Positions 9,279-50,844 of a stretch of DNA of 64,000 nucleotides are shown here, one piece after another. The notes below the pieces were generated by a model, which did no database searches, had not been told where the DNA came from, and saw only the letters and a list, made by a program, of their open reading frames with translations. A program made the position numbers and the translations under genes. Source of the stretch: Bacteroidia bacterium. Lineage in GTDB: Bacteria > Bacteroidota > Bacteroidia > SpSt-205. Numbering within the stretch: the first letter of the stretch is position 1; the number at the start of each line of letters is the position of its first letter. The stretch spans positions 36,167 through 100,166 of the forward strand of contig JANXAJ010000001.1 in the NCBI GenBank assembly GCA_025062295.1, in the 5' to 3' direction.

Positions 9279-10183
9279 GCGCTTGTGGCTGGGATGAAGA
9301 CGAAGAGTATATCCCCACCTACACGGGTACCTACATACGAGTGGGGGATGCACTTTACTGGAGGTCTTCTGCAGGGGAGGTAGTTCGGCTCTCGCTTGCA
9401 GTTCGCTCTATTGCAAGCACGCCGTGGGGATTAGCGGCACTATCGGCGGATGGACAGACTCTATATCTTTTTGAGGCAGGCAAGCTTGAACCGAAACAGC
9501 GGTTTGATTTAGGGGAAGCCTGCTCGAGGGTTACAGCTTTTTTTGAAAAACCAACCCTTTGTCTTGCTTGTCCAAAAGGGATTCGCTTAGGGCGTAGTTC
9601 AGAGAAATCTTTCAATCCCCGTTGGGAATCTCTCCCACAGAGCGGGCTATTTTCTCATATTGCTACGGCTTCAAGCTTTATTATCGCTGCAGGGGGGGGC
9701 AAAGTTGCTGTATATGAACCCCAACGCTTTGCCCAAGTAGCTGCTGCCTCCTTTTCTGGGACCCCAGTAGGACTCTGGATAGAACATCCCACGAGTGCAG
9801 CTCTCAGTTGGCGCGATGAAACAGGGACTTTGCGTATCCTTTCCTATTTCCATCCTGGGCGGCTTTTCACTTATGATAGCATAGGGAAGTATATAAGCCG
9901 TCAGACCTCTCCTTATCTCAAACCTGCTATTGGTACAGAGTATAGGGGAAGCATAAGCCTTATGTCGGACAGTGTCCTTCTGCCTGGGGGGCATCGGCAT
10001 GTGAGCGGATTTACCGCAGATCTCCTCAGAGGTGAGGTCTTCTTTTTGCGAAAGGATACTGTATGGCGATATCAAGTCACTCTTCCGTCTTCTCTTGGGC
10101 AGGTAGGGATCTTCTCTGTCTCGGGTGAAATGGAAGGAGTGTGGGTATATCGTTACGGTTCGGCAGAGGTTACAATCAGATAG
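9170..10183 (+). CDS. Hypothetical lipoprotein (beta-rich), last gene of the rpmF-plsX-fabH string
   Basis: Lipobox LLSAC after a hydrophobic stretch. The start is uncertain: candidates at 9170 or near 9251-9260 all overlap the fabH 3' end. Contains a G8 tract at 9692..9699. Confidence 0.5.
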   Translation: MPIRLRESAQKGRQSHFSYVRWGFYLGSFVATMGLLSACGWDEDEEYIPTYTGTYIRVGDALYWRSSAGEVVRLSLAVRSIASTPWGLAALSADGQTLYLFEAGKLEPKQRFDLGEACSRVTAFFEKPTLCLACPKGIRLGRSSEKSFNPRWESLPQSGLFSHIATASSFIIAAGGGKVAVYEPQRFAQVAAASFSGTPVGLWIEHPTSAALSWRDETGTLRILSYFHPGRLFTYDSIGKYISRQTSPYLKPAIGTEYRGSISLMSDSVLLPGGHRHVSGFTADLLRGEVFFLRKDTVWRYQVTLPSSLGQVGIFSVSGEMEGVWVYRYGSAEVTIR

Positions 10184-11391
10184 GGGGGAGTAGAGGAGCT
10201 TTCACCAGCTGCGAGCCAGCGCTGGAGGGTATAGGCTCGTCCGGAGAGCCATACATAGAAGGAAGCAGGCTTAGGACGGCGTCCTAGGGCTATCTCCTGA
10301 ATGGGTTGAGTTAGCTCCCAAATCACTCGCTCACCACTAAATTCCCCAAATCCCCAACTGGCACTTGCCACTTCGCCTGTGGTATCTGCATAAAGAGCGA
10401 GGCTCGCAGGACGAGGATAAAAAGGATTGTAGCTAAAAGCTGTAGCCGAATCGCTGAACCAGAAGAGGCGAGCGGATAGGATGGGGCGCCTATAAAGCCT
10501 TTCCCATCCCTCTATGTGAAAGCGAATACCTACCGGCAGTCCACCCGCTACAAGGAGAGTATGGCGCCATAGTAGGCTGTCTTGTAGAAGTCTATCTCGC
10601 AGAGTATGCCCACCTTCTCGTACAAGGCTGAATGCCCATGTGCAGGAGTCTGTGATGAAGAAATCATACCGCTGAGGAGCTTCACCCGTTTGAATTTTCT
10701 CCCGATAATATACTCGTAGAACAGTGGAAACACTGCGAGGAAAGACAGTATAGATAGCAGCTTTGCGGTCAGAATTTAGGGGCTCAGCAGAGAGGTATAA
10801 GCCGGGAAAAGCGGTTTGAAAGGCTTTGTCTCCACTAAGAGCGGTAGGGGGCAAGCTAAGAATCTGTCGACCAAGTGAGGTGTCTAATGGAAACCGGTAG
10901 CCTCCAGGTCGGACAGTTGTGAAGTAAAGACTATCACGCCCGGGTAAGACAAGGTTCTGACCTTCAGTGAGGAAGGTAGATTCGGTGGTATAGGTCTGCT
11001 CTGCGGAGAGAGGATGAAGGAGCTTCTCTACTCGGAGACGCATAGGCGCAGAGAAGTCCCCATAACTGCTTGCAATAAAGAGCTCCAGAATAACTGAATC
11101 CACAGCTATCAGCTCTTGAGTAACGAACTGGACCCCATTTCCTCCTAAGGCAAAGTTAGTTGCCCACCCAGCTTTCCATCGCCCTGTAAAAGTGTCTTCG
11201 GTTTGTCCCATGAAGACAAAAGGCAGATTATTTGTGACAGGAGGGGGGAGGAATACTTGCTGAATGTGAGTCAGGTAAAATGTATCCTGACGGAGGGGAG
11301 GTGGCGGGAAAACTTCCTCTCCTATGCGCCGGGGGTTTCTACACTCATTCCCACACAGCGCTAAGAGAAGGAAAAGAGTCTTCTTTCTCAA
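10153..11391 (-). CDS. Hypothetical lipoprotein, DUF4270-like
   Basis: Lipoprotein signal MRKKTLFLLLALCGNEC, 412 aa. It lies immediately downstream of the short glycogen-synthase-like gene, a pairing I recall as conserved in Bacteroidota. Confidence 0.4.
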   Translation of the reverse strand: MRKKTLFLLLALCGNECRNPRRIGEEVFPPPPLRQDTFYLTHIQQVFLPPPVTNNLPFVFMGQTEDTFTGRWKAGWATNFALGGNGVQFVTQELIAVDSVILELFIASSYGDFSAPMRLRVEKLLHPLSAEQTYTTESTFLTEGQNLVLPGRDSLYFTTVRPGGYRFPLDTSLGRQILSLPPTALSGDKAFQTAFPGLYLSAEPLNSDRKAAIYTVFPRSVSTVLRVYYREKIQTGEAPQRYDFFITDSCTWAFSLVREGGHTLRDRLLQDSLLWRHTLLVAGGLPVGIRFHIEGWERLYRRPILSARLFWFSDSATAFSYNPFYPRPASLALYADTTGEVASASWGFGEFSGERVIWELTQPIQEIALGRRPKPASFYVWLSGRAYTLQRWLAAGESSSTPPYLIVTSAEP

Positions 11392-21496: not shown

Positions 21497-21578
21497 GCCG
21501 AAGTGGCGGAACTGGTAGACGCGCACGTTTCAGGGGCGTGTGGGGTTTCCCGTGTGGGTTCGAATCCCACCTTCGGCA
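21497..21578 (+). tRNA. tRNA-Leu (anticodon CAG), type II with long variable arm
   Basis: Acceptor GCCGAAG/CTTCGGC. Anticodon stem CACGT/GCGTG with loop TTCAGGG (U33, CAG, G37). T arm GTGGG-TTCGAAT-CCCAC. Discriminator A. CCA not encoded. Confidence 0.85.
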
Positions 21579-31124: not shown

Positions 31125-31237
31125 CAAGCAAATATACACTCTGATATTTTTCTTTTCTCCTTGCTTCCCGAAAAATGCCTAAGAAAGGTTAGCATCATAC
31201 GGTTCTGATTCATGCCTTCCTCCATCATATATTTGTC

Positions 31238-33040: not shown

Positions 33041-33979
33041 TCAATAGGGAATGTGGTTCAAGACCACCTGAATAAAGGTATCGGTTCGGAGGCCTTCAGC
33101 TAAGGCAGTGTAAGAAAAGATAATGCGATGACGTAAAACAGCTGGTGCCACAGCCTTGATATCTTCTGGAAGAACTATTGAGCGTTCATGAAGGAAAGCA
33201 CGGGCTCGGGCTGCCCGATGCAAAGCCAAAGCTGCTCTGGGGGAAGCTCCATACGCTATCTTCTCATCCCATCCTTTGATACCGAAGCGCTGAGGATGAC
33301 GAGTGGCTCGTACCAGCCGGACTATGTAGGTCTCTAAGCGAGAGGGCACCTCTATTTGATTCACTTCTGCTTGATAATCTAAGATTTTTTTGGGTGAAAG
33401 AAGGGGAGGGGGAGGGGGAGGATACTGCTGCCGAGCCCATCGCCGCAATATTTCCTCTTCCTCTGTTTCTGTAGGATAGCCTACTTCTACTCGGAAAAGA
33501 AATCTATCTATTTGTGCTTCTGGAAGTGCATAGGTGCCTTCTTGTTCAATCGGATTCTGCGTAGCCAGCACCCAGAAAGGTCGGGGCAAGGGATAGGTTT
33601 CTTCTCCTAAGGTAACCTGTCCTTCTTGCATGCATTCTAAGAGGGCGCTTTGAACTTTGGCAGGAGCCCGATTCACTTCATCCGCTAAGAGGACTTGTGT
33701 GAAGATAGGCCCCTTCCGAGTGGAGAATCGGCCTGAACCCTCATACACGAGGCCTCCTGTCAAGTCGGAAGGCAGCATATCGGGTGTAAATTGCACTCGT
33801 CTAAACTCCAGACCGGAGAGATGAGCTAAAGTGCTTGCCATGAGAGTTTTAGCCACGCCTGGAACGCCTTCTAATAGCACGTGTCCGCCAGCCATTAGAG
33901 CGGTCCATAGCTGCTCCAGAGGCTCTCGCTGCCCAATCACGATGCGCTGGGCTGCCCCTACAAGTTGGTCTAATAGCAC
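33041..33979 (-). CDS. MoxR-family AAA+ ATPase
   Basis: Walker A LLEGVPGVAKT, Walker B LLADEVNRA, sensor and Arg-finger regions. 312 aa. Confidence 0.8.
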   Translation of the reverse strand: MLLDQLVGAAQRIVIGQREPLEQLWTALMAGGHVLLEGVPGVAKTLMASTLAHLSGLEFRRVQFTPDMLPSDLTGGLVYEGSGRFSTRKGPIFTQVLLADEVNRAPAKVQSALLECMQEGQVTLGEETYPLPRPFWVLATQNPIEQEGTYALPEAQIDRFLFRVEVGYPTETEEEEILRRWARQQYPPPPPPLLSPKKILDYQAEVNQIEVPSRLETYIVRLVRATRHPQRFGIKGWDEKIAYGASPRAALALHRAARARAFLHERSIVLPEDIKAVAPAVLRHRIIFSYTALAEGLRTDTFIQVVLNHIPY

Positions 33980-34019: not shown

Positions 34020-36689
34020 ATGCGTCTCCTCCTTTCCCTTCTTCTTCTTTCCTTCCTTCAAGCGACTCACGGGCTGGCGGGACAAATCACCTACGATTAT
34101 TTAGGTCCCAATCGCTACCGTATTCAAATCACTTACTACTCTGACTCTGCGGCGGCAGGGGTGGATCGATGTTTCATAGACTTGGAAGTATGGAGTGTAA
34201 TAGGAGGGACTCGGACCTTCATCTCGGCATATAGAAATATTCCACGAACCAATGGTCCAAGTGGGAGTGGATGCAATCCACCCGCTCGTATCGGCGTGAA
34301 TTTGCGCCCTCGTGTCAAGCGTAGCGATTATATTGTAGAGATTACTCTCCCTGGCCCAGGGCTGTATGAACTGCGTTACACAGACTTTGCCCGAGTCGAG
34401 AATGTCCGCAATATGGCTAACTCTGGGGCGACCTCCTTTTATGTAGAAACGCTCCTCAACAACAATCCTTTCATAGGTACTAACCGTTCCCCTATCTTAC
34501 TGAATGATCCCATAGACGATGCTTGTACAGGGCGGATCTGGACGCACAATCCAGGTGCCTATGATCCTGATGGGGACTCTCTTGTGTACAGTCTTATTCC
34601 CTGTCGCCAGTATGACCCGAGTGTCATGCAAAATCCGGTGCCTGTGGCAAATTACCGCTTTCCTAATGCATTCGGGGGCTCTTTCGGTATAGATCCATTG
34701 ACTGGACTAATCACATGGGATACCCCTCAGCAAGCGGGGGTGTATAATATTGCTATCTTGATAGAAGAATATCGGAATGGGCGTCGTATTGGATATGTAG
34801 TGCGCGACATGGCGATTTTTGTGCTGCCATGTCAGAATCGCCCTCCACAGATAGAGGCTCCAGCTGAAACCTGCATCACGGCTGGGCAGCGATTGTCTTT
34901 CCCCGTGCGAGCCTATGACCCCGATACGGGGGATAGTCTTTACTTTTACCTCAATAATGCCGGTCTTGGATTCAATGGACCTTTTCAAGCGCAGCCTCCA
35001 GCTACCATTTCTCCTTCTTCATTTCCTCTGAGGGGATACAATCCCCCTGCTGTGGAAGCCCTATTCAATTGGCAAACGACTTGTAGTCACATTCGTTCTC
35101 ACTTTTATCAAGTAGATTGGTATGCTCACGATAACTTACGCTATCGTCCTCCATTAGCTGCCCATCGCGTGACGAAGATCTATGTAATCGGTCCTTCTCC
35201 GTCAGGGCTCACATTGACCCCTGGTCCTCGCCAAGTAACGCTAAATTGGGTTCCTCCTCCGTGTCCTCCAGATGCATATGAGATTTATCGTTCGCCTGCG
35301 TCTCAGGCTTATATAGACACACCTTGTTGTAGAGCTCCACTGAGCGGATATGTCTTAGTTGCCACAGTGCCGGGCTCAGCTACCAGCTATGTAGATGCGA
35401 ACTTAGAATTCAGCCCTCGCTACTGCTATCGGCTTCGGGCACGATATAATGGCACTTTGAGTTGTCCCAGTGAGGAGGTATGTATAGAGCTTCCCTTAAA
35501 TTTCCCAATTATGACTCAGGATAGTGTGCATACTACGGATGGGGGAAATGGGGCGATTTGGGTCTCATGGCAAGCCCCCTTAGTATGGGATACCACCTTT
35601 TTTCCTCCTCCTTATACCTACGTACTGGAACGAGCCGAAGGTTTTAGTGGGGGTTCTTTTCAAACTGTAGCGACGGGTATTGTAGGCGAGGGCTACTTAG
35701 ACCAAGGGGGACTTTTCACGGCTACCCTGCCCTATCGGTATAGAGTTCGGCTAATTGATGGGACTGGACGAGAGGCTGCTTCTAGTAACACTGCTGCCAG
35801 CCTTTTTTTGCGCCTTCACCCTTTAGATGCAGCCCTTAGATTAGAATGGGAGCAGAGTGTGCCTTGGATAAATGACACTTTCTTTATTTATCGGGCGGAT
35901 CCTCCTCAATCCAGCTCATTTAGGTTGATTGCAGCCATTCCTGTCCAAGCTACTGGACGACAGAGCTTTACATATGTGGACTATGGGCTTCTGAATGACC
36001 AAACCTATTGCTATTATGTTTTGAGTCGCGGGGCATATGCGGTAAGTGGGGTGCGCCAGCCATTATGGAATGCCTCCAATATCGCTTGTGCAGCTCCCCG
36101 AGACACTATTCCTCCCTGTCTGCCAGACCCAGCTGCGTATGAGAGCGAAGTGGACTGTGAGACCTACCTTGTAGAGGTTCGTTGGACGGCTCCCGATAGC
36201 ATTTGTGGGGGCGATATAGGAGAGTATGGGATTTATGTGGCATCGGAGCCAGCAGGACCATACACCCTTCTAAGTTTTGTTCAGGAGCCTCAGCGGAGAT
36301 TCCGATGGCGGGCTCCAGGTACCCTACGCCTCTGTTTAGCGCTAACCGCTCGGGATACCACAGGAAATGAGAGTGCCTTGGGGCCGCCCCTCTGCTTTGA
36401 CAATTGCCCTGTCCTCATGTTGCCCAATACTTTTACCCCAAATGGCGATGGAATAAATGATGTATTTCGTCCTTTTATCTACCGGAATATACGGCAGGTC
36501 AGGTGCTGGATTTATGATCGGTGGGGCACTCTTATTACCGAGAGTCGCAACATTGATGAGCTATGGGATGGAACTTACCGAGGGAGCCCCGCACCGGAAG
36601 GCACCTACTTCTATATTATAGAAGCTACACTGGATACCCGCTCCAATCAGATCTTTCGCAAAGGCGGCTCTATCACTCTTCTGCGCTGA
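34020..36689 (+). CDS. Large secreted adhesin-like protein with T9SS type-B (gliding-motility-associated) C-terminal domain
   Basis: Signal peptide MRLLLSLLLLSFLQATHGLAG, multiple Ig/FN3-like beta repeats, C-terminal PNTFTPNGDGINDVFRP...WGTLI...GTYFYII. Start re-called to 34020. Confidence 0.7.
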   Translation: MRLLLSLLLLSFLQATHGLAGQITYDYLGPNRYRIQITYYSDSAAAGVDRCFIDLEVWSVIGGTRTFISAYRNIPRTNGPSGSGCNPPARIGVNLRPRVKRSDYIVEITLPGPGLYELRYTDFARVENVRNMANSGATSFYVETLLNNNPFIGTNRSPILLNDPIDDACTGRIWTHNPGAYDPDGDSLVYSLIPCRQYDPSVMQNPVPVANYRFPNAFGGSFGIDPLTGLITWDTPQQAGVYNIAILIEEYRNGRRIGYVVRDMAIFVLPCQNRPPQIEAPAETCITAGQRLSFPVRAYDPDTGDSLYFYLNNAGLGFNGPFQAQPPATISPSSFPLRGYNPPAVEALFNWQTTCSHIRSHFYQVDWYAHDNLRYRPPLAAHRVTKIYVIGPSPSGLTLTPGPRQVTLNWVPPPCPPDAYEIYRSPASQAYIDTPCCRAPLSGYVLVATVPGSATSYVDANLEFSPRYCYRLRARYNGTLSCPSEEVCIELPLNFPIMTQDSVHTTDGGNGAIWVSWQAPLVWDTTFFPPPYTYVLERAEGFSGGSFQTVATGIVGEGYLDQGGLFTATLPYRYRVRLIDGTGREAASSNTAASLFLRLHPLDAALRLEWEQSVPWINDTFFIYRADPPQSSSFRLIAAIPVQATGRQSFTYVDYGLLNDQTYCYYVLSRGAYAVSGVRQPLWNASNIACAAPRDTIPPCLPDPAAYESEVDCETYLVEVRWTAPDSICGGDIGEYGIYVASEPAGPYTLLSFVQEPQRRFRWRAPGTLRLCLALTARDTTGNESALGPPLCFDNCPVLMLPNTFTPNGDGINDVFRPFIYRNIRQVRCWIYDRWGTLITESRNIDELWDGTYRGSPAPEGTYFYIIEATLDTRSNQIFRKGGSITLLR

Positions 36690-36691
36690 CT

Positions 36692-37312
36692 ATGTTTTCA
36701 GGGATCATAGAAGCAATCGGTACGGTGCAAGCCATAGAGACAGTAACGGAGGGTCGTCGATTCTGGATTCAGGCTCCTTTTGTTGAAGCTCTGTCCTTAG
36801 GCAGCAGTATCGCCCACAACGGTGCTTGCCTATCTGTCGTAGCTATTAAGCATCGCTTCTATTGTGTGGAGGCAGTTCATGAGACGCTCAATCGAACCAA
36901 TCTAAACGAGCTGGAACTGGGAGATCCTGTCAATTTGGAGCGAGCTTTGCCTGTTACTGCTCGCATAGAAGGACATTTCGTCCAAGGACATGTAGATACT
37001 ACGATAGAACTCGTTGAAATTGTGAGGGTGGGAGGTGATACATACTATTTCAGCTTTGCCATTTCAGAGCCTTGGCGTCCTTATGTAGTTGAGAAAGGTT
37101 CTATTGCTATAGATGGAGTAAGTTTGACTGTGGCTGCTGTGGAAGAGGAGTCGTTTCGCGTAGCCATAATTCCATGGACTTACCACCATACCACTTTTTC
37201 TCAGCGCAAGGTAGGAGACCGCTTGAATGTAGAGTTTGATATTTTAGCGAAGTACCTTTGGCGCTGGGCTCAGCGGTATGGGATTTCTTCCCCTTTTTCT
37301 CAATCAGGCTAA
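36692..37312 (+). CDS. ribE: Riboflavin synthase alpha chain
   Basis: MFSGIIEAIGTV... with duplicated Lum-binding repeats. 206 aa. Start is 3 nt after the adhesin stop. Confidence 0.85.
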   Translation: MFSGIIEAIGTVQAIETVTEGRRFWIQAPFVEALSLGSSIAHNGACLSVVAIKHRFYCVEAVHETLNRTNLNELELGDPVNLERALPVTARIEGHFVQGHVDTTIELVEIVRVGGDTYYFSFAISEPWRPYVVEKGSIAIDGVSLTVAAVEEESFRVAIIPWTYHHTTFSQRKVGDRLNVEFDILAKYLWRWAQRYGISSPFSQSG

Positions 37313-37320
37313 ATTGCTTC

Positions 37321-38136
37321 ATGCCCCGAATGCGCACTTATTATGATTTGTTGGGTCTGCCTTTCGGTGCTTCTGAGGCCCAAGTCAGGCAGCGCTATCG
37401 GGAGCTAGCGAAACGATTCCATCCTGATGTGAATCCTTCCCCTGAGGCGAAGCTTCATATGCAGAGGCTTAATGAAGCTTACCGAGTCCTTACAACGCCT
37501 CATCTCCGACGAGCGTATCACTGGCGAATAGCTATGTTATTGGCTCGCCGTTCCGTTCGCTCTCCTATCTCGCCTGCCCCCTCTCTTACTCCCCCACTTG
37601 GGCATTTATCTCACCTTTTTGCCGCACTTATTCTGCTTCTTTTTCTCATTGCTGTGTTTTACCATTGGACACATCCTTTCCCTTTCCGTCGCCTCCATCT
37701 CTCTGGGTTTGGCTGGCATTCCCTCCCCCCCTACTTGCATTTACCCCCTTCTATTCAGCGAATAGATTTGTCTAGAAACCGACTGAAGGAGATCCCGAAG
37801 GAGCTGTGGCGGATGTCCTCCCTAACACACCTAGACCTTTCTTATAATCAGCTTACCACCCTTTCCTCACAGATTTTTCTCTTCAGCCATCTGGAGGAGC
37901 TCAATCTGAGCTATAATCAGCTTTCCATCCTGCCTTTAGGTATAGGAGAGTTACGTCGCCTTCGCCGACTTGAGCTTCAGGGGAATCGGCTTCAAGAGGT
38001 ACCAGAAGAGATTTTTACTCTTCCTCACTTAGAGGTGTTGGATGTGCGTCAGAATCCCCTTGCCCCAGAAGCTCAAATCCGTCTCCGACAATTTCAAGAA
38101 AGATGCGGGTGCCAAGTCCTCTGGACCCTACCCTAA
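37321..38136 (+). CDS. J-domain / single TM / leucine-rich-repeat fusion protein
   Basis: J domain YYDLLGL...RYRELAKRFHPDVNP...LNEAYRVL with HPD. TM LFAALILLLFLIAVFYHW. Five LxxLxLxxNxL repeats (LDLSYNQLTTL, LNLSYNQLSIL, LELQGNRLQEV, LDVRQNPL). Confidence 0.65.
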   Translation: MPRMRTYYDLLGLPFGASEAQVRQRYRELAKRFHPDVNPSPEAKLHMQRLNEAYRVLTTPHLRRAYHWRIAMLLARRSVRSPISPAPSLTPPLGHLSHLFAALILLLFLIAVFYHWTHPFPFRRLHLSGFGWHSLPPYLHLPPSIQRIDLSRNRLKEIPKELWRMSSLTHLDLSYNQLTTLSSQIFLFSHLEELNLSYNQLSILPLGIGELRRLRRLELQGNRLQEVPEEIFTLPHLEVLDVRQNPLAPEAQIRLRQFQERCGCQVLWTLP

Positions 38137-38166
38137 GATCCAAAGAAGAGCTTTATTTTTGTAATC

Positions 38167-40380
38167 ATGTACTACCTTTTCCTACTAATAGCTTTTGGGT
38201 GGGCCCAGACGAAGGTGTGTGGCACTGACCTCTACATGCAAGAAGAAGAGCGACATCATCCTTTTCTCCCTCAGCTTCGGGCTCAATTGGATCAAGCTAT
38301 CGCTGAATGGATTCAGGCACACTCTTCCAGCTTACAGAGAGGGGCTGAGGAAGAGTGTATAGAGTCGGAATTTGTGATTCCTGTCGTCGTTCATATCATT
38401 CACTCCGGGAATGGACAGCCAGATAGTATTCCTCTCTCTCGTGTGTTTCGCCAAATGGATCAGCTCTTTGATGATTATCGTAGGCGTCCTTATAGTAAGG
38501 GGTATAGCTCTGGTGTAGATACCCGCATAGAATTGTCCTTAGCCACTAAAGACCCTCAGGGAAATCCTCATATTGGGGTCACTTACACCCGCTTCACTGA
38601 AGCCGGCCTTTCTTCAGCCCGAGTTCAAATGTTTTCGGATGAAGAGCTTACAATGAAAAACTCTACGGGATGGGATCGGGATAAATACTTAAATGTGTGG
38701 GTAATTAGAGAGATATGTCCAGCCACCGGATGTCAGCCTGGAGATGTAGTGCTTGGTTTTGCCCCCTTGCCTGGGGGTGAGAGGGCTCGGGAGGGGGTGG
38801 TAGTCATCTCAGACTTTTTCGGTCGCGCTAGTGGCGGTCAGACAATGACTCATGAAGTTGGACACTACCTTAACTTGTATCATCCCTTTCAAGGGGGGTG
38901 TACAGGCATGCGGGATAATAACTGTGCCACAGGGGGGGATCGGGTATGTGATACACCTCCCACTGCTGCGGCAAACTATGACAATGCCCGCAGGCAAAAT
39001 AGTTGTGCTGAGAATATCTCTATCCTTGGAGGCGATAAACCTGACCTTTTGCGAAGCTACATGGAGTACCTAAATGACGCTTCCTTAGACCTTTTCTCGG
39101 AGGGGCAAGCGGTTCGTATGCAGGCCACGCTTAGGAATCCAAGCGTTCTGGACCGAAAGCAATGGCAGTTTCTCCAGCAGACGGGTACAGGTCCATGGGG
39201 GCGAGTCAAAGCAAACTTCGCTCTGAAGGGATGTGAGCAGCCACCCTGCGTCGTCTGTCCAAATCAACCTCTTGTTCTGACTAGCTATAGCATGGGTAAG
39301 CCCCACCTTTTTCAGTGGGAAATTCGGCGAGGCTCTCAAGTAGTTGTCGCTTCCTCAGAAGGTCCATGCGCTACGATTGTAGCTCCCTCTATACCAGACA
39401 CTTACAGCGTCTTCTTGAGAGTAGAAAATTATGCTGCCAGCGCTGAGACTACTTATACTGACTTCCTCATCGTGCGAGATCTGAATGAAGTCTCGTCTTA
39501 TCCATTCATAGAAGATTTTGAAGGCACATTCCCTCCCCGGGGATGGGTGATTGTCAATCCAGATTTTGCCACCAGGAATAGTCAAAATATCACATGGGAA
39601 AGGTATAGGAGCACCGGGGGTGGAAGCTATGGAGGAAGCAATGCTGCCCTGCGAGTCCGAAATCACCGCTACTATAACTATAGCCAGCGAGACCATCTGA
39701 TTACGCCACTCATTCGGATTCCAGAATCGTCTATTGACCCTACCCTTGCGTTTGACATATACTACAGAGCTGTTCGTTGGAGCGATGCAAGTAATCAGCC
39801 TCTTCTTTATCAGGATACGCTTTCAGTGTATATTTCCCAGGATTGCGGTAGCACATGGAGACTTCTATATGAAGAAAATGGTGAGTCACTGGATATAGAG
39901 GGGGTGCCGATTCAGGCGCTCAACTCGTCCTATCCTGCAGAGCTGGTACCACCGCAAGGACCAAATGGAAAATGGCGTCGCAAGAAGGTGCGCATACCTG
40001 ACGAATATAAGGGCTCTACGGTGCTGATCCGTTTTGAAAATAGAACAGGAATGGGGAATACTCTCTACTTGGATAGTGTCCATATCAACGATGCTCAGTT
40101 GATTCCCGCTACCCTTTCCACAGAGTCAGCTGTAATCCGTTTTATTCCAAATCCGGTTCAAGGCGATATAGGGTGGCTTTCTATCCAAGGGGTACAGGCA
40201 TCGGTTCTCTCGTATGAGCTCTTAGAGCCAACGGGTCGGCTGTTGCGATCGGGTTCTTTAGAAGTGGGAACTGAAGCTATCCCAATTCCTCTTCATGGGA
40301 TTCCGTCGGGGGTATATCTCTTGGTCGTGCGTCAGCCTTCAGCTTCGCCCCTTTTCCATCGGATAGTAGTAGTTGATTGA
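38167..40380 (+). CDS. M43-family (cytophagalysin/pappalysin-like) zinc metalloprotease with T9SS type-A C-terminal sorting domain
   Basis: HEVGHYLNLYHPF...DRVCDTPP metzincin motif. C-terminal IRFIPNPVQGDIGWLSI...GVYLLVV... CTD. Confidence 0.7.
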   Translation: MYYLFLLIAFGWAQTKVCGTDLYMQEEERHHPFLPQLRAQLDQAIAEWIQAHSSSLQRGAEEECIESEFVIPVVVHIIHSGNGQPDSIPLSRVFRQMDQLFDDYRRRPYSKGYSSGVDTRIELSLATKDPQGNPHIGVTYTRFTEAGLSSARVQMFSDEELTMKNSTGWDRDKYLNVWVIREICPATGCQPGDVVLGFAPLPGGERAREGVVVISDFFGRASGGQTMTHEVGHYLNLYHPFQGGCTGMRDNNCATGGDRVCDTPPTAAANYDNARRQNSCAENISILGGDKPDLLRSYMEYLNDASLDLFSEGQAVRMQATLRNPSVLDRKQWQFLQQTGTGPWGRVKANFALKGCEQPPCVVCPNQPLVLTSYSMGKPHLFQWEIRRGSQVVVASSEGPCATIVAPSIPDTYSVFLRVENYAASAETTYTDFLIVRDLNEVSSYPFIEDFEGTFPPRGWVIVNPDFATRNSQNITWERYRSTGGGSYGGSNAALRVRNHRYYNYSQRDHLITPLIRIPESSIDPTLAFDIYYRAVRWSDASNQPLLYQDTLSVYISQDCGSTWRLLYEENGESLDIEGVPIQALNSSYPAELVPPQGPNGKWRRKKVRIPDEYKGSTVLIRFENRTGMGNTLYLDSVHINDAQLIPATLSTESAVIRFIPNPVQGDIGWLSIQGVQASVLSYELLEPTGRLLRSGSLEVGTEAIPIPLHGIPSGVYLLVVRQPSASPLFHRIVVVD

Positions 40381-40395
40381 GTGGGTTCTGACTAC

Positions 40396-41160
40396 CTAAG
40401 GACTCCGAGAGTTCTGTGCGCTGCGAGGTGGGGGAGTGTGCCTCAGTGCGCTCCATATCATTTGCCATGCTCGCTGCTTTTCCTCAGGTGAGACTGCTTT
40501 CCTCCAAAACTCCGTCTGATATTCTATTCTCCATAAGTCCTCTAAGGCTTGCTTGAGTGAAAAGTTTAGAGTCTCAAGGGTGTGAAGCTCCTCTAATGTG
40601 AGACTGCCTGGGTGCATCGGTAGGTAAAATAGAAGGAGAGACTTGAGGGATTGAATAAAGGCAGGAAATTGACCCAACTCAGGCTTGCGCCAGCGAATTA
40701 GCCATATCCCCCACCTTAGGAAAAGGAGAGCCGATTCAATCCTTCTCTGAAGAGGCCTCCGGAAGAGCGGAAAAAGAGCCACGGTAGCTAAAAGTAGGGC
40801 AATCATCAGCCAAACTACCCAGAGCTGTCTCTCAAAACCCGGCTGTGCCTCCTCCTTGAGAGAAGGGACGGAAAAATCAGCTAAAGGCATTAGGGTATCA
40901 CTTGGCAAAGGGGGAACTTTGATCTGAACCGTGCTGGTTTCACTCCCCCATACAATCCGAACCCCATCTTCTACCAGATCCCAAATCCGAAGAAGGGCAA
41001 AGACGGTGTCCCCTCGTTGGTAGGTCGCTATTTTCTCAGCACCGAGAGGCAAATCTCGGGCTTTCACGCGCCACACGAGAAAAGGCTCTGCTAACCATAC
41101 GGTATCAGGCATGTTACAGACTTTAGCAAAGAGTACCCCTAAAAAGAGCAAAACTTTCAT
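40396..41160 (-). CDS. Hypothetical membrane protein (signal peptide plus one internal TM)
   Basis: MKVLLFLGVLFAKVC signal and a mid-protein TM LWVVWLMIALLLATVALFPLF. Confidence 0.35.
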   Translation of the reverse strand: MKVLLFLGVLFAKVCNMPDTVWLAEPFLVWRVKARDLPLGAEKIATYQRGDTVFALLRIWDLVEDGVRIVWGSETSTVQIKVPPLPSDTLMPLADFSVPSLKEEAQPGFERQLWVVWLMIALLLATVALFPLFRRPLQRRIESALLFLRWGIWLIRWRKPELGQFPAFIQSLKSLLLFYLPMHPGSLTLEELHTLETLNFSLKQALEDLWRIEYQTEFWRKAVSPEEKQRAWQMIWSALRHTPPPRSAQNSRSP

Positions 41161-47985: not shown

Positions 47986-50844
47986 ATGAGATATCTCACC
48001 CCCTACCTTATCGGAGTCATCTTATGCGCTCAACAGCCAAATGGCCTTCTGGATACACTGACAGATTTAGTCCAGCATCGTGAATATCTGGTTCGCATGC
48101 GGGACAGCGTACCGTTAGCGACAAGTGTGAATCTTCCGATTTTCAGTGATACTGCTCAGGTAGAAATAGACCTTGGTTCCATACTACCAGGTCTTGGACG
48201 ACAGCGACTTCGGTTTGCTTATCCTGGAACCCAGTATTTCGTCTATCCTGATCAGCCTGATCCGTATGCGCTGCCGGTCATTTTCACAAGAACCCCCTAC
48301 AATAAGGGAGGGACTGAACTCAGCAAAGGGTACGCCCTTCTTGGATACGCTGGTATAGAGCAGGACATGCGAGGACGATATCGTTCATGGGGCGTTTATC
48401 TCCCTATGTATAGCGATAGCTGGGAAAAGACGGCATATGTCCAGCATATCAGTCCAAATGCCGGCCACCCGTTGGATATCACCCCAGATAAAAAAGCCAA
48501 CCTGCACGAGGATGGATGGGATTCATATCAATGGATTCTGAATGATCTGCGGTATGACCGCGATGGGGATGGGTCTGAAGAGTCTCTGCGATGTAATGGA
48601 AAGATCGGTATGTTTGGAGGCTCCGCGCTGGGCAATACCCAGTATCAGTTAGCGGCAGCTCATCGGATTGACCCTCAATCGCCGGGGCTCAAATGCTTGA
48701 TGCCTGTTGTCGCTTCCGCTGAATTCTATCATAGTGCAGGACATCACAATGGTGTCTACAGAGAACGACTTATAGACGGCTGGCTACGCGGGCAAGTGGA
48801 ATTCTATTCCCTCTGGACCGATGGACCAGCAAATCCCTACGACTCTATTCACACGGTGGCAGATTATGGTCCGAGAATCCAAAATCCGCTTCAAGCAGCT
48901 GAGGCTTGCATAGACTTCTGGACTGTCCAAGATGGGGCTCACTATCCAAACTCACCCGCTCGAGCTATCATGGATATGAGCCATGCAACTCTGGATGAAA
49001 ACGGCAATCCCCAGTGGCGAGGACCGCGAAGCCGATATGAAAATATTCAGGTACCCGTTTATAACCTAACAGGATGGTGGGATATCTTTATAGATGGGCA
49101 GATACAGACTTGGCAAAACTTAATGAAGCATTTACCCCCGTCTCTGAAGAAGTATCAGAAGCTCGTTATTGGACCTTGGGCCCATCAAACTATGGGTCAG
49201 CGGAGTACAGGAGATATGCGGATTTTGCCTGATGGACGTGATCATCGCTATCCACCCAACGTAACAGAGGAATTCAATGTCCCAGATATTTCGGAGCTTC
49301 GCTTGGAAACAGCTTCTGAATTACTTCAATCGGAAGTAGTAGGATGGTTTCGCTACTTTCTCGGCACGCCTACTTTTCAATTGCCGCCAGACACCGCTTG
49401 GCAAGTAGTCCGGGGAAGTATAGGGGATGTCTTCCTTCGTATCCCTGCAGATACTTTCCGAGCAGGGTTTTATGACTTTTTCAACTTTCTCAACGGCACG
49501 GCAGGCTTAGCAAATTTCCCTATAGAATTCAAGATAGGTGCGAGCGGAACCCCCCAGCGTCTCAATATTACGCTTCCTCCGCTCGGAACTTCCCTCTTTG
49601 GGGATACTACTCGTCAAGTGCTCTCCCCTCCTTCTTATGAGTTTGATGCTACGAAGCCAGGTGGTCGTCCGAATGTGCGATTCTATGTCGTGGGCCCTGT
49701 AGCTGATACTCTCAACCCAGCTGTGGGGAATTACTGGTATAAAGCTGACACTTTTCCTCTTCCTTCTTTGCCGACAGTGAGACTGTATCTTCATGGAGAT
49801 GGGCGGCTCTCTGAAATTCCGCCACAAACGGAAGAGCCTCCTCGCTCCTTCGTTGCAGACCCTGACGACCCCGTTCCTACCCATGGCGGACCGAATATGA
49901 TTGAATACACCCCTGATCGTTCCCGTCTGAGCCAAGGACAGATGGATTTCACTGATCCACTCTACCGAAATTTAGTGTTAGACCGCCCTGCTCGCTACGT
50001 CGTTGATGGTCAAAGCTACTCTGACCTTATCGCATATGTCTCTGATTACATTCCTGATTCCTTCTGCATTGCCGGGTTCCCCACAGCTCAGCTGTATGTT
50101 GCGCTGAGGGCTTTATGGGGTGCTTTCCCAGATTCCGTGAATGGAGATATCATCCTGCGAGTCTTAGATGTGTATCCAGATGGGCGTGAGTACTATGTAT
50201 TTGAAGGAGCCTGCAATGCAAGGGCTCGGGAGTATGCAGAAAGCTGGGCTGATGGCTCTGAAGACACCTCTAAGCCATGGTATAACTTAGCTGCTGATAG
50301 TATCTATAAGTGGCGCTTTCGGATGCTTCCGATTGCTTACTGCTGGGGCAAAGGGCATCGTATCAAGGTCCTCGTGAGTGCCACGAACTACCCCCGTTTT
50401 CAGCCATGTCCAAATGTCCCCCTCATGCCTTATGAATTCTATCGGCGGCGTCCCTTTGGTAATACCCCCTACACTTTTCGCGGGGTTGAAATGTATCCTC
50501 GACGAAACCTGCAAACCATTTATTCTGGCCCAGATAAGCTTTCCTTTATTGAATTTCCTGTCTTAGGAGGGCGCTTTGTTTCTCAGCTAGAGACCTATTC
50601 CTCACCTTATCCTCTCCAAACTTCCCTCTATCCCAATCCTGCCGACGAGGCTGCCTCTGTAGAAGTAAATCAGCCTGGCGTGTATGAGGTAGCTGTTTAT
50701 ACTCTGACAGGAGAGCGGATTTTCTTGGCTCACTTTTGTGGTAAGATTGTCCTTCCCGTTTCCGAGTGGTCGCCGGGTCTATATCTTGTTCGGGTGGAGA
50801 GTGGGGGGAAAACAGTTGGATACCATAAATTGGTCGTTCACTAA
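47986..50844 (+). CDS. CocE/NonD-family (peptidase S15, X-Pro dipeptidyl-peptidase-like) hydrolase with T9SS type-A C-terminal sorting domain
   Basis: FTRTPYNKGG...GYAGIEQDMRGRYRSWG core. C-terminal LYPNPADEAASVEVNQPGVYEVAVYTLTGE...GLYLVRVESGGKTVGYHKLVV CTD. Confidence 0.65.
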   Translation: MRYLTPYLIGVILCAQQPNGLLDTLTDLVQHREYLVRMRDSVPLATSVNLPIFSDTAQVEIDLGSILPGLGRQRLRFAYPGTQYFVYPDQPDPYALPVIFTRTPYNKGGTELSKGYALLGYAGIEQDMRGRYRSWGVYLPMYSDSWEKTAYVQHISPNAGHPLDITPDKKANLHEDGWDSYQWILNDLRYDRDGDGSEESLRCNGKIGMFGGSALGNTQYQLAAAHRIDPQSPGLKCLMPVVASAEFYHSAGHHNGVYRERLIDGWLRGQVEFYSLWTDGPANPYDSIHTVADYGPRIQNPLQAAEACIDFWTVQDGAHYPNSPARAIMDMSHATLDENGNPQWRGPRSRYENIQVPVYNLTGWWDIFIDGQIQTWQNLMKHLPPSLKKYQKLVIGPWAHQTMGQRSTGDMRILPDGRDHRYPPNVTEEFNVPDISELRLETASELLQSEVVGWFRYFLGTPTFQLPPDTAWQVVRGSIGDVFLRIPADTFRAGFYDFFNFLNGTAGLANFPIEFKIGASGTPQRLNITLPPLGTSLFGDTTRQVLSPPSYEFDATKPGGRPNVRFYVVGPVADTLNPAVGNYWYKADTFPLPSLPTVRLYLHGDGRLSEIPPQTEEPPRSFVADPDDPVPTHGGPNMIEYTPDRSRLSQGQMDFTDPLYRNLVLDRPARYVVDGQSYSDLIAYVSDYIPDSFCIAGFPTAQLYVALRALWGAFPDSVNGDIILRVLDVYPDGREYYVFEGACNARAREYAESWADGSEDTSKPWYNLAADSIYKWRFRMLPIAYCWGKGHRIKVLVSATNYPRFQPCPNVPLMPYEFYRRRPFGNTPYTFRGVEMYPRRNLQTIYSGPDKLSFIEFPVLGGRFVSQLETYSSPYPLQTSLYPNPADEAASVEVNQPGVYEVAVYTLTGERIFLAHFCGKIVLPVSEWSPGLYLVRVESGGKTVGYHKLVVH

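Follow-up and report, generated by a model that had tools for sequence, protein, structure and literature searches.

A short gene in a 64,000-nucleotide stretch of a Bacteroidia contig (JANXAJ010000001.1, forward-strand positions 36,167 to 100,166; hereafter the window) encodes a J-domain, one transmembrane (TM) helix and leucine-rich repeats (LRRs) in a single protein, here called J-LRR. It lies just behind ribE, among genes for cargo of the type IX secretion system (T9SS). The locus raises the question of what such a fusion would do, and whether it serves the secretion of the neighbouring cargo, as a sequence-only reading of the window had proposed.

A conserved fusion of J-domain, TM helix and LRRs

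The open reading frame (Table 1) specifies 271 residues, including the first Met. Translation may begin at M1 (37321) or at M4 (37330); several homologues start at MRTYYD. The division of this protein into a J-domain, one TM helix and five LRRs, suggested by the sequence-only reading, was confirmed by Pfam, by Kyte-Doolittle analysis and by an AF2 model with a pLDDT of 92. The Pfam DnaJ match covers residues 6-66 with 62 bits (cutoff 27.8), and LRR_8 is matched with an E value of 2.3e-31 and 107.8 bits.

Table 1. Positions of genes and protein features at the J-LRR locus, numbered from the first nucleotide of the window.
Feature	Position	Strand	Remarks
T9SS type-B protein, 889 aa	34020..36689	+	TIGR04131 62.1 bits (cutoff 35); CHU_C E 8.8e-19
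ribE, riboflavin synthase, 206 aa	36692..37312	+	NF006767 216 bits (cutoff 155); two Lum_binding domains
J-domain / TM / LRR protein	37321..38136	+	271 aa; alternative start 37330
J-domain (aa 5-70)	37333..37530	+	Pfam DnaJ E 5.9e-17; HPD 37420-37428
Variable Pro/Ser-rich linker (aa 71-93)	37531..37599	+	pLDDT 54-84; 22% identity within close clade
Single TM helix (aa 94-117)	37600..37671	+	Kyte-Doolittle; AF2 helix
LRR domain	37684..38064	+	N-cap pseudo-repeat aa 122-144, then five 23-residue repeats from aa 145, 168, 191, 214, 237
C-terminal cap	38065..38133	+	helix aa 249-262, terminal strand with conserved V/I-L-W at end
Bacteroidota-type -7 box TATTTTTG	38154..38161	+	TAnnTTTG, 5 nt before M43 ATG
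M43 metalloprotease (cytophagalysin-type), 737 aa	38167..40380	+	Peptidase_M43 47.9 bits (cutoff 23)

A first homologue search gave 31 full-length clusters with 40-61% identity. The breadth of the family was defined by a profile search with the J-domain and TM half of the protein, which added a few clusters to these 31. True members scored 198-236 bits and the next best match 107, a sharp gap. The J-LRR fusion is thus found in approximately 35 clusters at 90% identity in all, with 15 species-level MAGs carrying it. An exhaustive search of representative sequences with the full protein was discarded as a measure of breadth; giant multi-LRR proteins of 1,000-8,000 residues swamped its results, among which only two, P0008 and P0017, were true representatives of the family. 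In distant J-domain matches the combination of a J-domain, a TM helix and another small C-terminal domain recurs as a design.

With full-length homologues in 15 species-level genomes and an overall dN/dS of 0.125 for the single close species pair L009/L012, the J-LRR gene is not a chance open reading frame. It is a real, conserved and small gene of a narrow group of uncultured Bacteroidia. The fusion as a whole is conserved and, by the dN/dS value of this one pair, subject to purifying selection.

The J-domain

In the AF2 model the N-terminal region adopts the J-domain fold, with helices at residues 7-11, 19-33, 41-58 and 60-80 and a pLDDT of 95 or higher across most of its length. The HPD tripeptide (H34-P35-D36) is intact, as previously noted, and is unchanged in 28 of 28 aligned sequences; the family alignment also shows conservation of Y26, R27, L29 and A30 in helix II. 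Against the J-domain of E. coli DnaJ, identity is 40%, and J-LRR has Glu where DnaJ helix II has R27. With a mean column majority of 77%, the J-domain is better conserved than any other part of the protein, and its dN/dS in the single pair L009/L012 is 0.019.

Searches of J-LRR against Pfam and NCBIfam gave no match to a G/F region, a zinc-finger or DnaJ_C (no PF01556 or PF00684), and the NCBIfam DnaJ equivalog models match the J portion only. Having the J fold and the HPD motif, and lacking the regions that mark classes A and B, J-LRR is most likely a class C J-protein. Conservation of its sequence supports HPD-dependent stimulation of an Hsp70 ATPase as its putative activity. When DnaK served as the tblastn probe, neither the window nor 17 homologous loci yielded an Hsp70 gene, and since no locus has a dedicated Hsp70 gene, the housekeeping DnaK would be the default partner.

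Predicted membrane topology and the LRR domain

No N-terminal signal peptide could be read from the J-LRR sequence. A basic extension of helix IV precedes the Pro/Ser-rich linker, and the hydrophobic stretch LSHLFAALILLLFLIAVFY that follows has a Kyte-Doolittle mean of 2.54 over 19 residues. The TM helix ends in a conserved interfacial motif, Y-H-x-x-H/N-P-F; in the family alignment Y114 and P119 show little or no variation.

Within 25 residues of the helix, Lys and Arg number on average 4.9 on the N-terminal side and 2.2 on the C-terminal side (27 sequences), and the net charge of the whole domains is +8.7 and +0.7, respectively. The N-terminal side is the more positive in 25 of the 27 sequences, in windows of 25-30 residues and over whole domains. 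Flanks of 15 residues, with Lys and Arg totals of 35 and 43 over 25 core-family sequences, give no signal by the positive-inside rule. The orientation proposed earlier, with the J-domain in the cytoplasm and the LRRs in the periplasm, is therefore favoured by the charge bias at 25-30 residues and over whole domains, the 15-residue window being uninformative. Counting against a periplasmic location are the absence of conserved cysteines from the LRR domain and the fact that typical 23-residue LRRs of this type, such as those of SHOC2, are mostly cytosolic in eukaryotes.

The LRR domain is modelled with six parallel strands, one every 23 residues (at residues 124, 147, 170, 193, 216 and 239; pLDDT >95), a pattern that corresponds to the N-cap pseudo-repeat and five canonical LxxLxLxxN repeats, followed by the C-cap helix. 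The solenoid starts approximately six residues past the TM helix. A fold search of the PDB with Foldseek returned LRR proteins only (E 2e-9), with Leptospira LIC12759/LIC11098 and SHOC2 as the nearest solved LRRs. On the concave face, repeats 3-5 carry the conserved charged residues E192, R215, D/E218, D241 and R243. Identity inside the close clade is 82% for the J-domain and 56% for the LRR domain; the neighbouring proteins are 67-86% identical to those of the window. By this comparison the LRR ectodomain evolves much faster than the J-domain, so that its partner is probably variable or loosely constraining.

Genomic context

The four genes are separated by gaps of 2 nt (T9SS type-B gene to ribE), 8 nt (ribE to J-LRR) and 30 nt (J-LRR to M43), which we checked on the sequence. 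The 889-residue protein, previously labelled a T9SS type-B adhesin, starts with a signal peptide, contains an fn3-like region and ends in a T9SS type-B sorting domain; it is 76-79% identical in L001-L005. Its sorting domain bears out the type-B assignment, while "adhesin" derives from the fn3 match alone. The downstream protein, described earlier as an M43 T9SS protease, does have the Peptidase_M43 domain, with an HEVGHYLNLYH motif and a choice-of-anchor J domain (NF038128 36.6 bits, cutoff 30); its T9SS type-A tail falls below threshold (TIGR04183 18.3 bits, cutoff 23; E 0.0017) and is plausible, not certified. PADLOC defence models gave no match for J-LRR or for four of its neighbours, and a reading as anti-phage defence was dropped on this result.

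In the window, 16 of the 47 TAnnTTTG boxes sit 4-6 nt before the start of an open reading frame of at least 100 residues, against 1.45 ± 1.2 for random positions. The box before the M43 gene is invariant in L001, L003 and L005, although the surrounding spacer is poorly conserved. Since the M43 gene has this conserved promoter box of its own, a transcription unit at this locus would hold three genes at most, and the M43 transcript is implied to be separate and probably leaderless. Comparison with relatives found no conserved box belonging to ribE or to the J-LRR gene, so a three-gene unit with the T9SS type-B gene first, followed by ribE and J-LRR, stays plausible. As regards the M43 gene, the single unit of four genes envisaged before is contradicted. 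A candidate internal promoter for J-LRR, TACCTTTG (37253-37260, inside ribE), was rejected, being kept in only one of five relatives. Scans for sigma-70 promoters and terminators performed at chance (7 found against 8.4 expected; 9 against 8.1).

Across the family, the order T9SS type-B gene, ribE, J-LRR occurs in the window and five close relatives only, and the clade with this context is nested inside the family tree. An M43 protease with a type-A-like tail follows the J-LRR gene in four of these six genomes. Seven others have it in a divergent pair with a gene for a Wzi-like outer-membrane protein, the outer neighbours of these seven loci all being different; the remaining genomes have other neighbours. 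Wzi-paired members are basal and widespread in the family tree, and neither the window's clade nor L007, L013 or L015 shows the pairing. The Wzi-like family extends far beyond the J-LRR family and is widespread without a J-LRR gene, and its Pfam Wzi match is borderline (29.8 bits, cutoff 30.1). Genes for dTDP-rhamnose synthesis (rmlB/C/A) lie downstream in L008, L011, L013 and L015. The ancestral genomic partner of the J-LRR gene appears to have been the gene for the Wzi-like outer-membrane beta-barrel, and these neighbours, with the dTDP-rhamnose genes, hint at the cell envelope in a general way, and not at type IX secretion in particular. A search of the literature found no link between Wzi and T9SS.

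Evidence for a T9SS linkage across the family is confined to the close clade and to L007, where a genuine porV (NF033710, 219 bits, 200 C-terminal residues) lies directly upstream of the J-LRR gene; the other loci have none. In L002 and L004 a porV is found approximately 10 kb downstream. Taking roughly 20 T9SS genes per genome as a general estimate, we put the chance of one such adjacency in about eight independent contexts at approximately 10%, and the porV of L007 is not compelling. Neither Pfam nor NCBIfam assigns J-LRR a T9SS type-A or type-B sorting domain or membership of the Por/Gld/Spr proteins. The place of the J-LRR gene among T9SS cargo genes is best read, from the tree, as a local and derived arrangement that implies no functional link.

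Proposed function and alternatives

We give a little better than even chances to J-LRR being an inner-membrane-anchored class C J-protein, with a cytoplasmic J-domain acting on DnaK and a periplasmic LRR domain giving specificity. The basic J-domain would remain in the cytoplasm, where, as we infer from its sequence, it would stimulate ATP hydrolysis by housekeeping DnaK at the membrane. The TM helix would serve as a type II signal anchor, through which the LRR domain would be exported to the periplasm to lie against the outer face of the inner membrane. There the LRRs may bind a periplasmic or envelope partner, or may position or oligomerise the J-LRR protein, and would thereby guide DnaK activity to one membrane site or client in particular. 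The gene was relocated behind ribE in the lineage of the window, where it is probably co-transcribed with ribE and the T9SS type-B gene, with no functional meaning implied.

The sequence-only reading had suggested that J-LRR recruits DnaK, as a membrane-spanning adaptor, possibly for the folding or export of T9SS cargo encoded next to it. The close spacing behind a cargo gene in six genomes, the M43 protease with its type-A-like tail in four of them and the porV genes of L007, L002 and L004 would all fit such a role, yet we hold it improbable, and the link should not be carried forward. The cargo context reflects a single evolutionary event in a nested clade, the J-LRR gene has no cargo neighbour in ten other species genomes, where the Wzi-like pairing is the usual context, and ribE is interposed between cargo gene and J-LRR gene. 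About 5% of the window's genes (3 of about 55) encode T9SS tails, which makes chance adjacency common; the M43 gene is preceded by a conserved promoter box that belongs to it alone; J-LRR is without a T9SS domain, and we know of no LRR-containing T9SS component. The conserved divergent Wzi-like pair in seven loci and the rml genes in four would fit trans-membrane signalling tied to envelope polysaccharide, in which a ligand of the periplasmic LRRs would change how the J-domain oligomerises or how accessible it is, and would thereby control a DnaK-dependent cytoplasmic regulator. The conserved charged patch on the concave LRR face and the analogy with the effect of E. coli DjlA on colanic-acid capsule synthesis (below) are consistent with such a role. 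We nevertheless think it unlikely, as the Wzi-like adjacency is not universal, Wzi-like genes are widespread without J-LRR, the Pfam match of the Wzi-like protein is borderline, no regulator gene is consistently nearby and the argument is wholly inferential. For the related proposal that J-LRR couples the periplasm to cytoplasmic Hsp70, so that occupancy of the LRRs by an envelope component controls where and when DnaK is activated, we also see rather little likelihood; if true, LRR-gated activation of DnaK would give prokaryotes an equivalent of the trans-membrane coupling of the ERdj1 type.

It is quite improbable, in our judgement, that the fusion is real while its J-domain is inactive towards Hsp70 and provides a structural or dimerising cytoplasmic module only. 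Direct support for this was not found, though Glu does stand in place of R27 of DnaJ helix II; against it are an HPD motif invariant across 28 sequences and the J-domain's standing as the most conserved part of the protein, with a dN/dS of 0.019 in one species pair. A role as an exported effector, with the J-domain hijacking the Hsp70 of a eukaryote or competitor and the LRRs providing targeting, in the manner of HopI1-type J and XopL/SspH-type LRR effectors, is barely credible. Partial NCBIfam similarity to XopAC, XopAE, XopL, SlrP and SspH2 involves the LRR portion only, at 21-81 bits against cutoffs of 450-1243 (80.7 against 450, for instance), and is generic to LRRs; the Fic or NEL/XL-box domains of the type III LRR effectors (XopAC, XopL, SspH/SlrP) were not matched. 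J-LRR has an internal TM helix without a secretion signal or T9SS tail, its gene lies on the chromosome amid housekeeping genes, in 15 species that belong to a single environmental clade, and purifying selection on its J-domain appears to be very strong.

Thousands of different domains occur fused to a J-domain, and one extra architecture is unsurprising in itself. Class C J-proteins decide the site of action of Hsp70, and few bacterial ones have a known client; a J-domain joined across the inner membrane to a protein-binding ectodomain would offer a handle on whether bacteria put DnaK to use in reacting to periplasmic or envelope cues. Its value is limited by the restriction of the family to a narrow clade of uncultured Bacteroidia.

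Comparison with known J-proteins and LRR proteins

The sequence-only reading was aware of no bacterial family with this architecture, and we likewise found no description of a J / TM / LRR protein in the searchable literature and no such structure in the PDB. The main text of a PNAS 2023 survey of J-proteins mentions neither LRRs nor transmembrane regions. J-LRR is an undescribed variant among known membrane-tethered J-proteins.

A preprint (bioRxiv 10.1101/2020.06.12.147645, citing Kelley and Georgopoulos 1997) describes E. coli DjlA as an inner-membrane J-protein linked to colanic-acid production. DjlA resembles J-LRR in being bacterial, with one TM helix in the inner membrane and a cytoplasmic J-domain that works with DnaK (predicted for J-LRR), and a role has been proposed for it at the membrane or envelope, in colanic-acid production and in the quality control of exported and membrane proteins. 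It differs in having its TM helix at the extreme N-terminus, a TerB-like domain in the middle and the J-domain at the C-terminus, with almost nothing in the periplasm, whereas J-LRR has the order J-domain, TM helix and 150-residue LRR ectodomain. Similarity is confined to the J-domain, and with its reversed domain order and no match to TerB or DjlA models, J-LRR falls outside the DjlA family. E. coli DjlB and DjlC (PMC8215388) have, like J-LRR, an N-terminal cytoplasmic J-domain and a membrane helix towards the C-terminus. They end at this tail anchor and are encoded beside a dedicated Hsp70 gene, hscC, whereas J-LRR continues for approximately 150 residues past its TM helix and, as described above, has no Hsp70 gene nearby.

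The eukaryotic organelle J-proteins ERdj1/Mtj1, Sec63 and Pam18/Tim14 are membrane proteins, single- or multi-pass, whose J-domain faces Hsp70 while a partner-binding domain lies across the membrane, so that events on the two sides are coupled. J-LRR would share this logic, but to our knowledge these proteins are unrelated to it outside the J-domain, have other partner domains and in no case carry LRRs. The Leptospira proteins LIC12759, LIC11098, LIC10831 and LSS01692, and SHOC2, share with J-LRR the 23-residue repeat LxxLxLxxNxLxxLPxxIxxL; they are LRR-only or much longer, without J-domain or TM helix, and the similarity is generic to the repeat class. Other uncharacterised proteins, such as P0294, P0302, P0307 and P0323, score at most about 107 bits with the profile of the J-domain and TM half, against 198-236 for the family, and their C-terminal modules are unrelated to LRRs, but like J-LRR they have a J-domain at the N-terminus, then a linker and a single TM helix, and at the C-terminus a module outside the cytoplasm.

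Domain architecture and predicted topology

The J-LRR protein contains a DnaJ J-domain (residues 6-66, Pfam E = 5.9e-17) followed by leucine-rich repeats matching LRR_8, LRR_4 and LRR_1 (residues 143-257, E = 2.3e-31). NCBIfam DnaJ models align to the J part only and LRR effector models to the LRR part only, both with scores far under the cutoffs. An AlphaFold2 model computed from a 28-sequence family alignment was confident, with a mean pLDDT of 92.4. The J-domain helices run to residue 80, residues 81-93 form a linker of low confidence, and the single long helix of residues 94-117 falls on the most hydrophobic stretch (Kyte-Doolittle 2.54). Six parallel strands with an exact 23-residue spacing start six residues past this transmembrane (TM) helix, and a capping helix and then a terminal strand close the LRR. 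The J/TM/LRR architecture proposed in the sequence-only reading is upheld by the Pfam domains, hydropathy, the model and conservation across the family.

No N-terminal signal peptide was found, so the J-domain is expected to stay in the cytoplasm, beside DnaK and ATP. The positive-inside rule gave no signal with 15-residue flanks of the TM helix, but with 25-30 residue flanks the mean count of Lys plus Arg was 4.9 on the N side versus 2.2 on the C side, and the net charge of the whole domains was +8.7 versus +0.7. The N side was the more positive in 25 of the 27 sequences compared. On the strength of this charge bias and the missing signal peptide we accept N-in/C-out as the likeliest topology, which makes the placement suggested earlier, with the J-domain in the cytoplasm and the LRR across the inner membrane, a likely one.

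Features of the J-LRR locus, the window and related loci
Feature	Position	Strand	Remarks
TAnnTTTG boxes near starts (final G)	1399, 1444, 2454, 6265, 12153, 20896, 21598, 23498, 23532, 25882, 38161, 41931, 52146, 57017, 57034, 57431		
tRNA	21497-21578		-7 box ends 6 nt before 5' end
MoxR-type AAA+ ATPase	33041-33979	-	divergent from T9SS-B gene; intergenic only 40 nt
T9SS type-B sorting-domain protein (T9SS-B)	34020-36689	+	domain models
Riboflavin synthase (ribE)	36692-37312	+	domain models
J-LRR ORF	37321-38136	+	816 nt, 271 aa
HPD codons of J-domain	37420-37428	+	read on sequence
-7 box before M43	38154-38161	+	within 30-nt J-LRR/M43 gap
M43 metalloprotease	38167-40380	+	domain models
254-aa membrane protein	40396-41160	-	no family match
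S15 X-Pro dipeptidyl-peptidase	47986-50844	+	T9SS type-A tail; third T9SS cargo gene of the window
porV	L007 3-605		directly upstream of J-LRR gene
porV	L002 20653-20805		about 10 kb downstream of J-LRR gene
porV	L004 20679-20813		about 10 kb downstream of J-LRR gene
Wzi-like gene (example)	L011 8317-9942	-	divergent from J-LRR gene
Split J-LRR gene	L006 10001-10825		two ORFs, 10001-10396 and 10487-10825
Distant J-TM-LRR locus	L077 663-1900		
Distant J-TM-LRR locus	L076 780-2832		

Family breadth and conservation

Judged by its conservation, J-LRR is a real, conserved gene. A search of 5.8 billion proteins returned 31 full-length clusters, 40-61% identical, in which J-domain, TM helix and LRR are arranged alike; where a source was named, it was a 'Bacteroidia bacterium' MAG. 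The hits also included a handful of J-LRR proteins at greater distance. A profile search with the J + TM + N-cap half contributed a few extra clusters, giving about 35 in total, and with a profile of that half only, family members (198-236 bits) separated cleanly from the next score (107 bits). Among species-representative genomes the gene is present in 15 species (loci L001-L015, of which L001-L005 are the window's close relatives).

The HPD motif is invariant and the J-domain is the best-conserved part of the family alignment. Also conserved are a Y-H-x-x-H/N-P-F motif closing the TM helix and the scaffold positions of the LRR, most of whose solvent positions vary. For the sole close species pair (L009/L012) dN/dS was 0.125 for the whole gene; by region it was 0.019 (J-domain), 0.12 (LRR) and 0.33 (linker and TM helix), with 0.04-0.06 for two neighbouring genes. 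In the window's own clade identity is 82% in the J-domain and only 56% in the LRR, and neighbouring proteins are 67-86% identical to those of the window, so it is the ectodomain that evolves fast. The split gene of L006 (MAG SKYG92), publicly annotated as a 131-aa DnaJ-domain protein (P0272), is frameshifted or a pseudogene, unless the split is an assembly artefact.

Relation to known J-proteins and proposed mechanism

The J-LRR protein shares the principle of a membrane J-protein with the known bacterial proteins DjlA and DjlB/DjlC (PMC8215388; bioRxiv 10.1101/2020.06.12.147645). It differs from DjlA in domain order and in having no TerB domain and, unlike DjlB/DjlC, is not tail-anchored and has no hscC gene close by. 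The repeats fall in the generic 23-residue class and most resemble those of Leptospira LRR proteins and SHOC2. Further proteins built as J + TM + small ectodomain occur among distant J-domain matches, so the design recurs and the novelty lies in the LRR module alone; the 2,712 class C architectures counted in surveys (PMC10410713) also make the fusion less surprising. Literature and structure searches turned up no publication and no solved structure combining J + TM + LRR, in keeping with the sequence-only reading, which was aware of no described bacterial family of this kind.

The best-supported reading is that of a membrane-tethered class C J-protein, in which the cytoplasmic J-domain would activate DnaK at the inner membrane and the periplasmic LRR, lying flush on the membrane, would supply partner specificity. 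No Hsp70 gene accompanies the J-LRR gene at any locus examined, which leaves the housekeeping DnaK as its default partner. Conserved charged residues cluster on the concave face of LRR repeats 3-5, a candidate binding site. Its gene neighbours hint at a partner among envelope components and not at T9SS in particular.

Genomic neighbourhood

The neighbours of the J-LRR gene, and the gaps of 2, 8 and 30 nt (T9SS-B/ribE, ribE/J-LRR and J-LRR/M43), were borne out on the window sequence. M43 had been called a T9SS protease; the metalloprotease assignment stands, while its type-A tail scores only 18.3 bits against a cutoff of 23. The tightly spaced T9SS-B/ribE/J-LRR order recurs in L001-L005, with M43 next in three of the five, and these neighbours are absent beside the J-LRR gene in the ten other species. 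At least three of about 55 window genes bear T9SS tails (that of the S15 peptidase scores 29.6 bits for Por_Secre_tail, cutoff 27), so finding a cargo gene next door is not remarkable. In L007 the gene immediately upstream of J-LRR is a genuine porV, a T9SS gene; no porV was found anywhere in the 64-kb window.

Seven of the ten other species (L006, L008-L012 and L014) carry, just upstream of J-LRR and divergently transcribed, a gene of about 540 codons for an outer-membrane-type, Wzi-like protein with a C-terminal LRF/LRW and a borderline Pfam Wzi match (29.8 bits, cutoff 30.1). The two start codons are some 10-90 nt apart, and the genes outside the pair differ among sub-lineages. In a neighbour-joining tree the window's clade falls inside the family, and Wzi-adjacent members are both basal and scattered through it. 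On this tree the Wzi-like pairing appears to be the ancestral state and the place behind T9SS-B and ribE a derived one. The proposed T9SS link is thus not sustained, its context being limited to the window's close relatives. The Wzi-like family is widespread in Bacteroidota (>1,000 matches), and in the L001 genome a Wzi-like gene shares the contig with J-LRR, not adjacent to it.

Genes for dTDP-rhamnose lie downstream of J-LRR in L008, L011, L013 and L015, with a VWA gene beyond them in all four and, after the dTDP-rhamnose genes in the first three, a homologue of the window's 254-aa membrane protein. In L008 and L011 these homologues (34-38% identity) stand between rhamnose-nucleotide and VWA-domain genes, a few kb downstream of J-LRR; in L013 a clustered homologue holds the equivalent position. 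The window gene may survive from the ancestral J-LRR neighbourhood. The two distant J-TM-LRR genes, from other organisms, seem to form operons with cell-envelope genes: one overlaps a SPOR-domain gene by 4 nt, and the other precedes a MurG-like glycosyltransferase gene.

Promoters and transcription units

Sigma-70-type scans of the window gave chance-level results. The Bacteroidota -7 box TAnnTTTG, by contrast with chance, occurs 47 times where 29.8 ± 5.4 copies are expected. Of these, 16 precede the start codon of an ORF of 100 aa or more by 4-6 nt, a placement expected 1.45 ± 1.2 times from random positions. Many window genes therefore appear leaderless, and this spacing points to frequent leaderless mRNAs in the organism.

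Around the M43 box the spacer varies, but the box itself is unchanged in L001, L003 and L005; this gives M43 a predicted promoter of its own and argues against the single four-gene transcription unit proposed before. No conserved -7 box precedes ribE or J-LRR, and transcription from the T9SS-B gene probably continues through both; that gene has no exact box itself, only TATTTTG, a near-match, 19 nt ahead of its start codon. Outside the window's clade, boxes or near-boxes occur in the intergenic region common to the Wzi-like and J-LRR genes. In L015 a -7 box stands at leaderless distance.

Box positions also suggest that several longest-ORF start codons are placed too far upstream. The DtxR-like gene (minus strand, start region 31129-31139) probably starts at Met 31124, not 31139, the DUF6438 gene (minus strand) at GTG 41926, not 41953, and the TPR gene (31235, plus strand) at its second Met, 31241.
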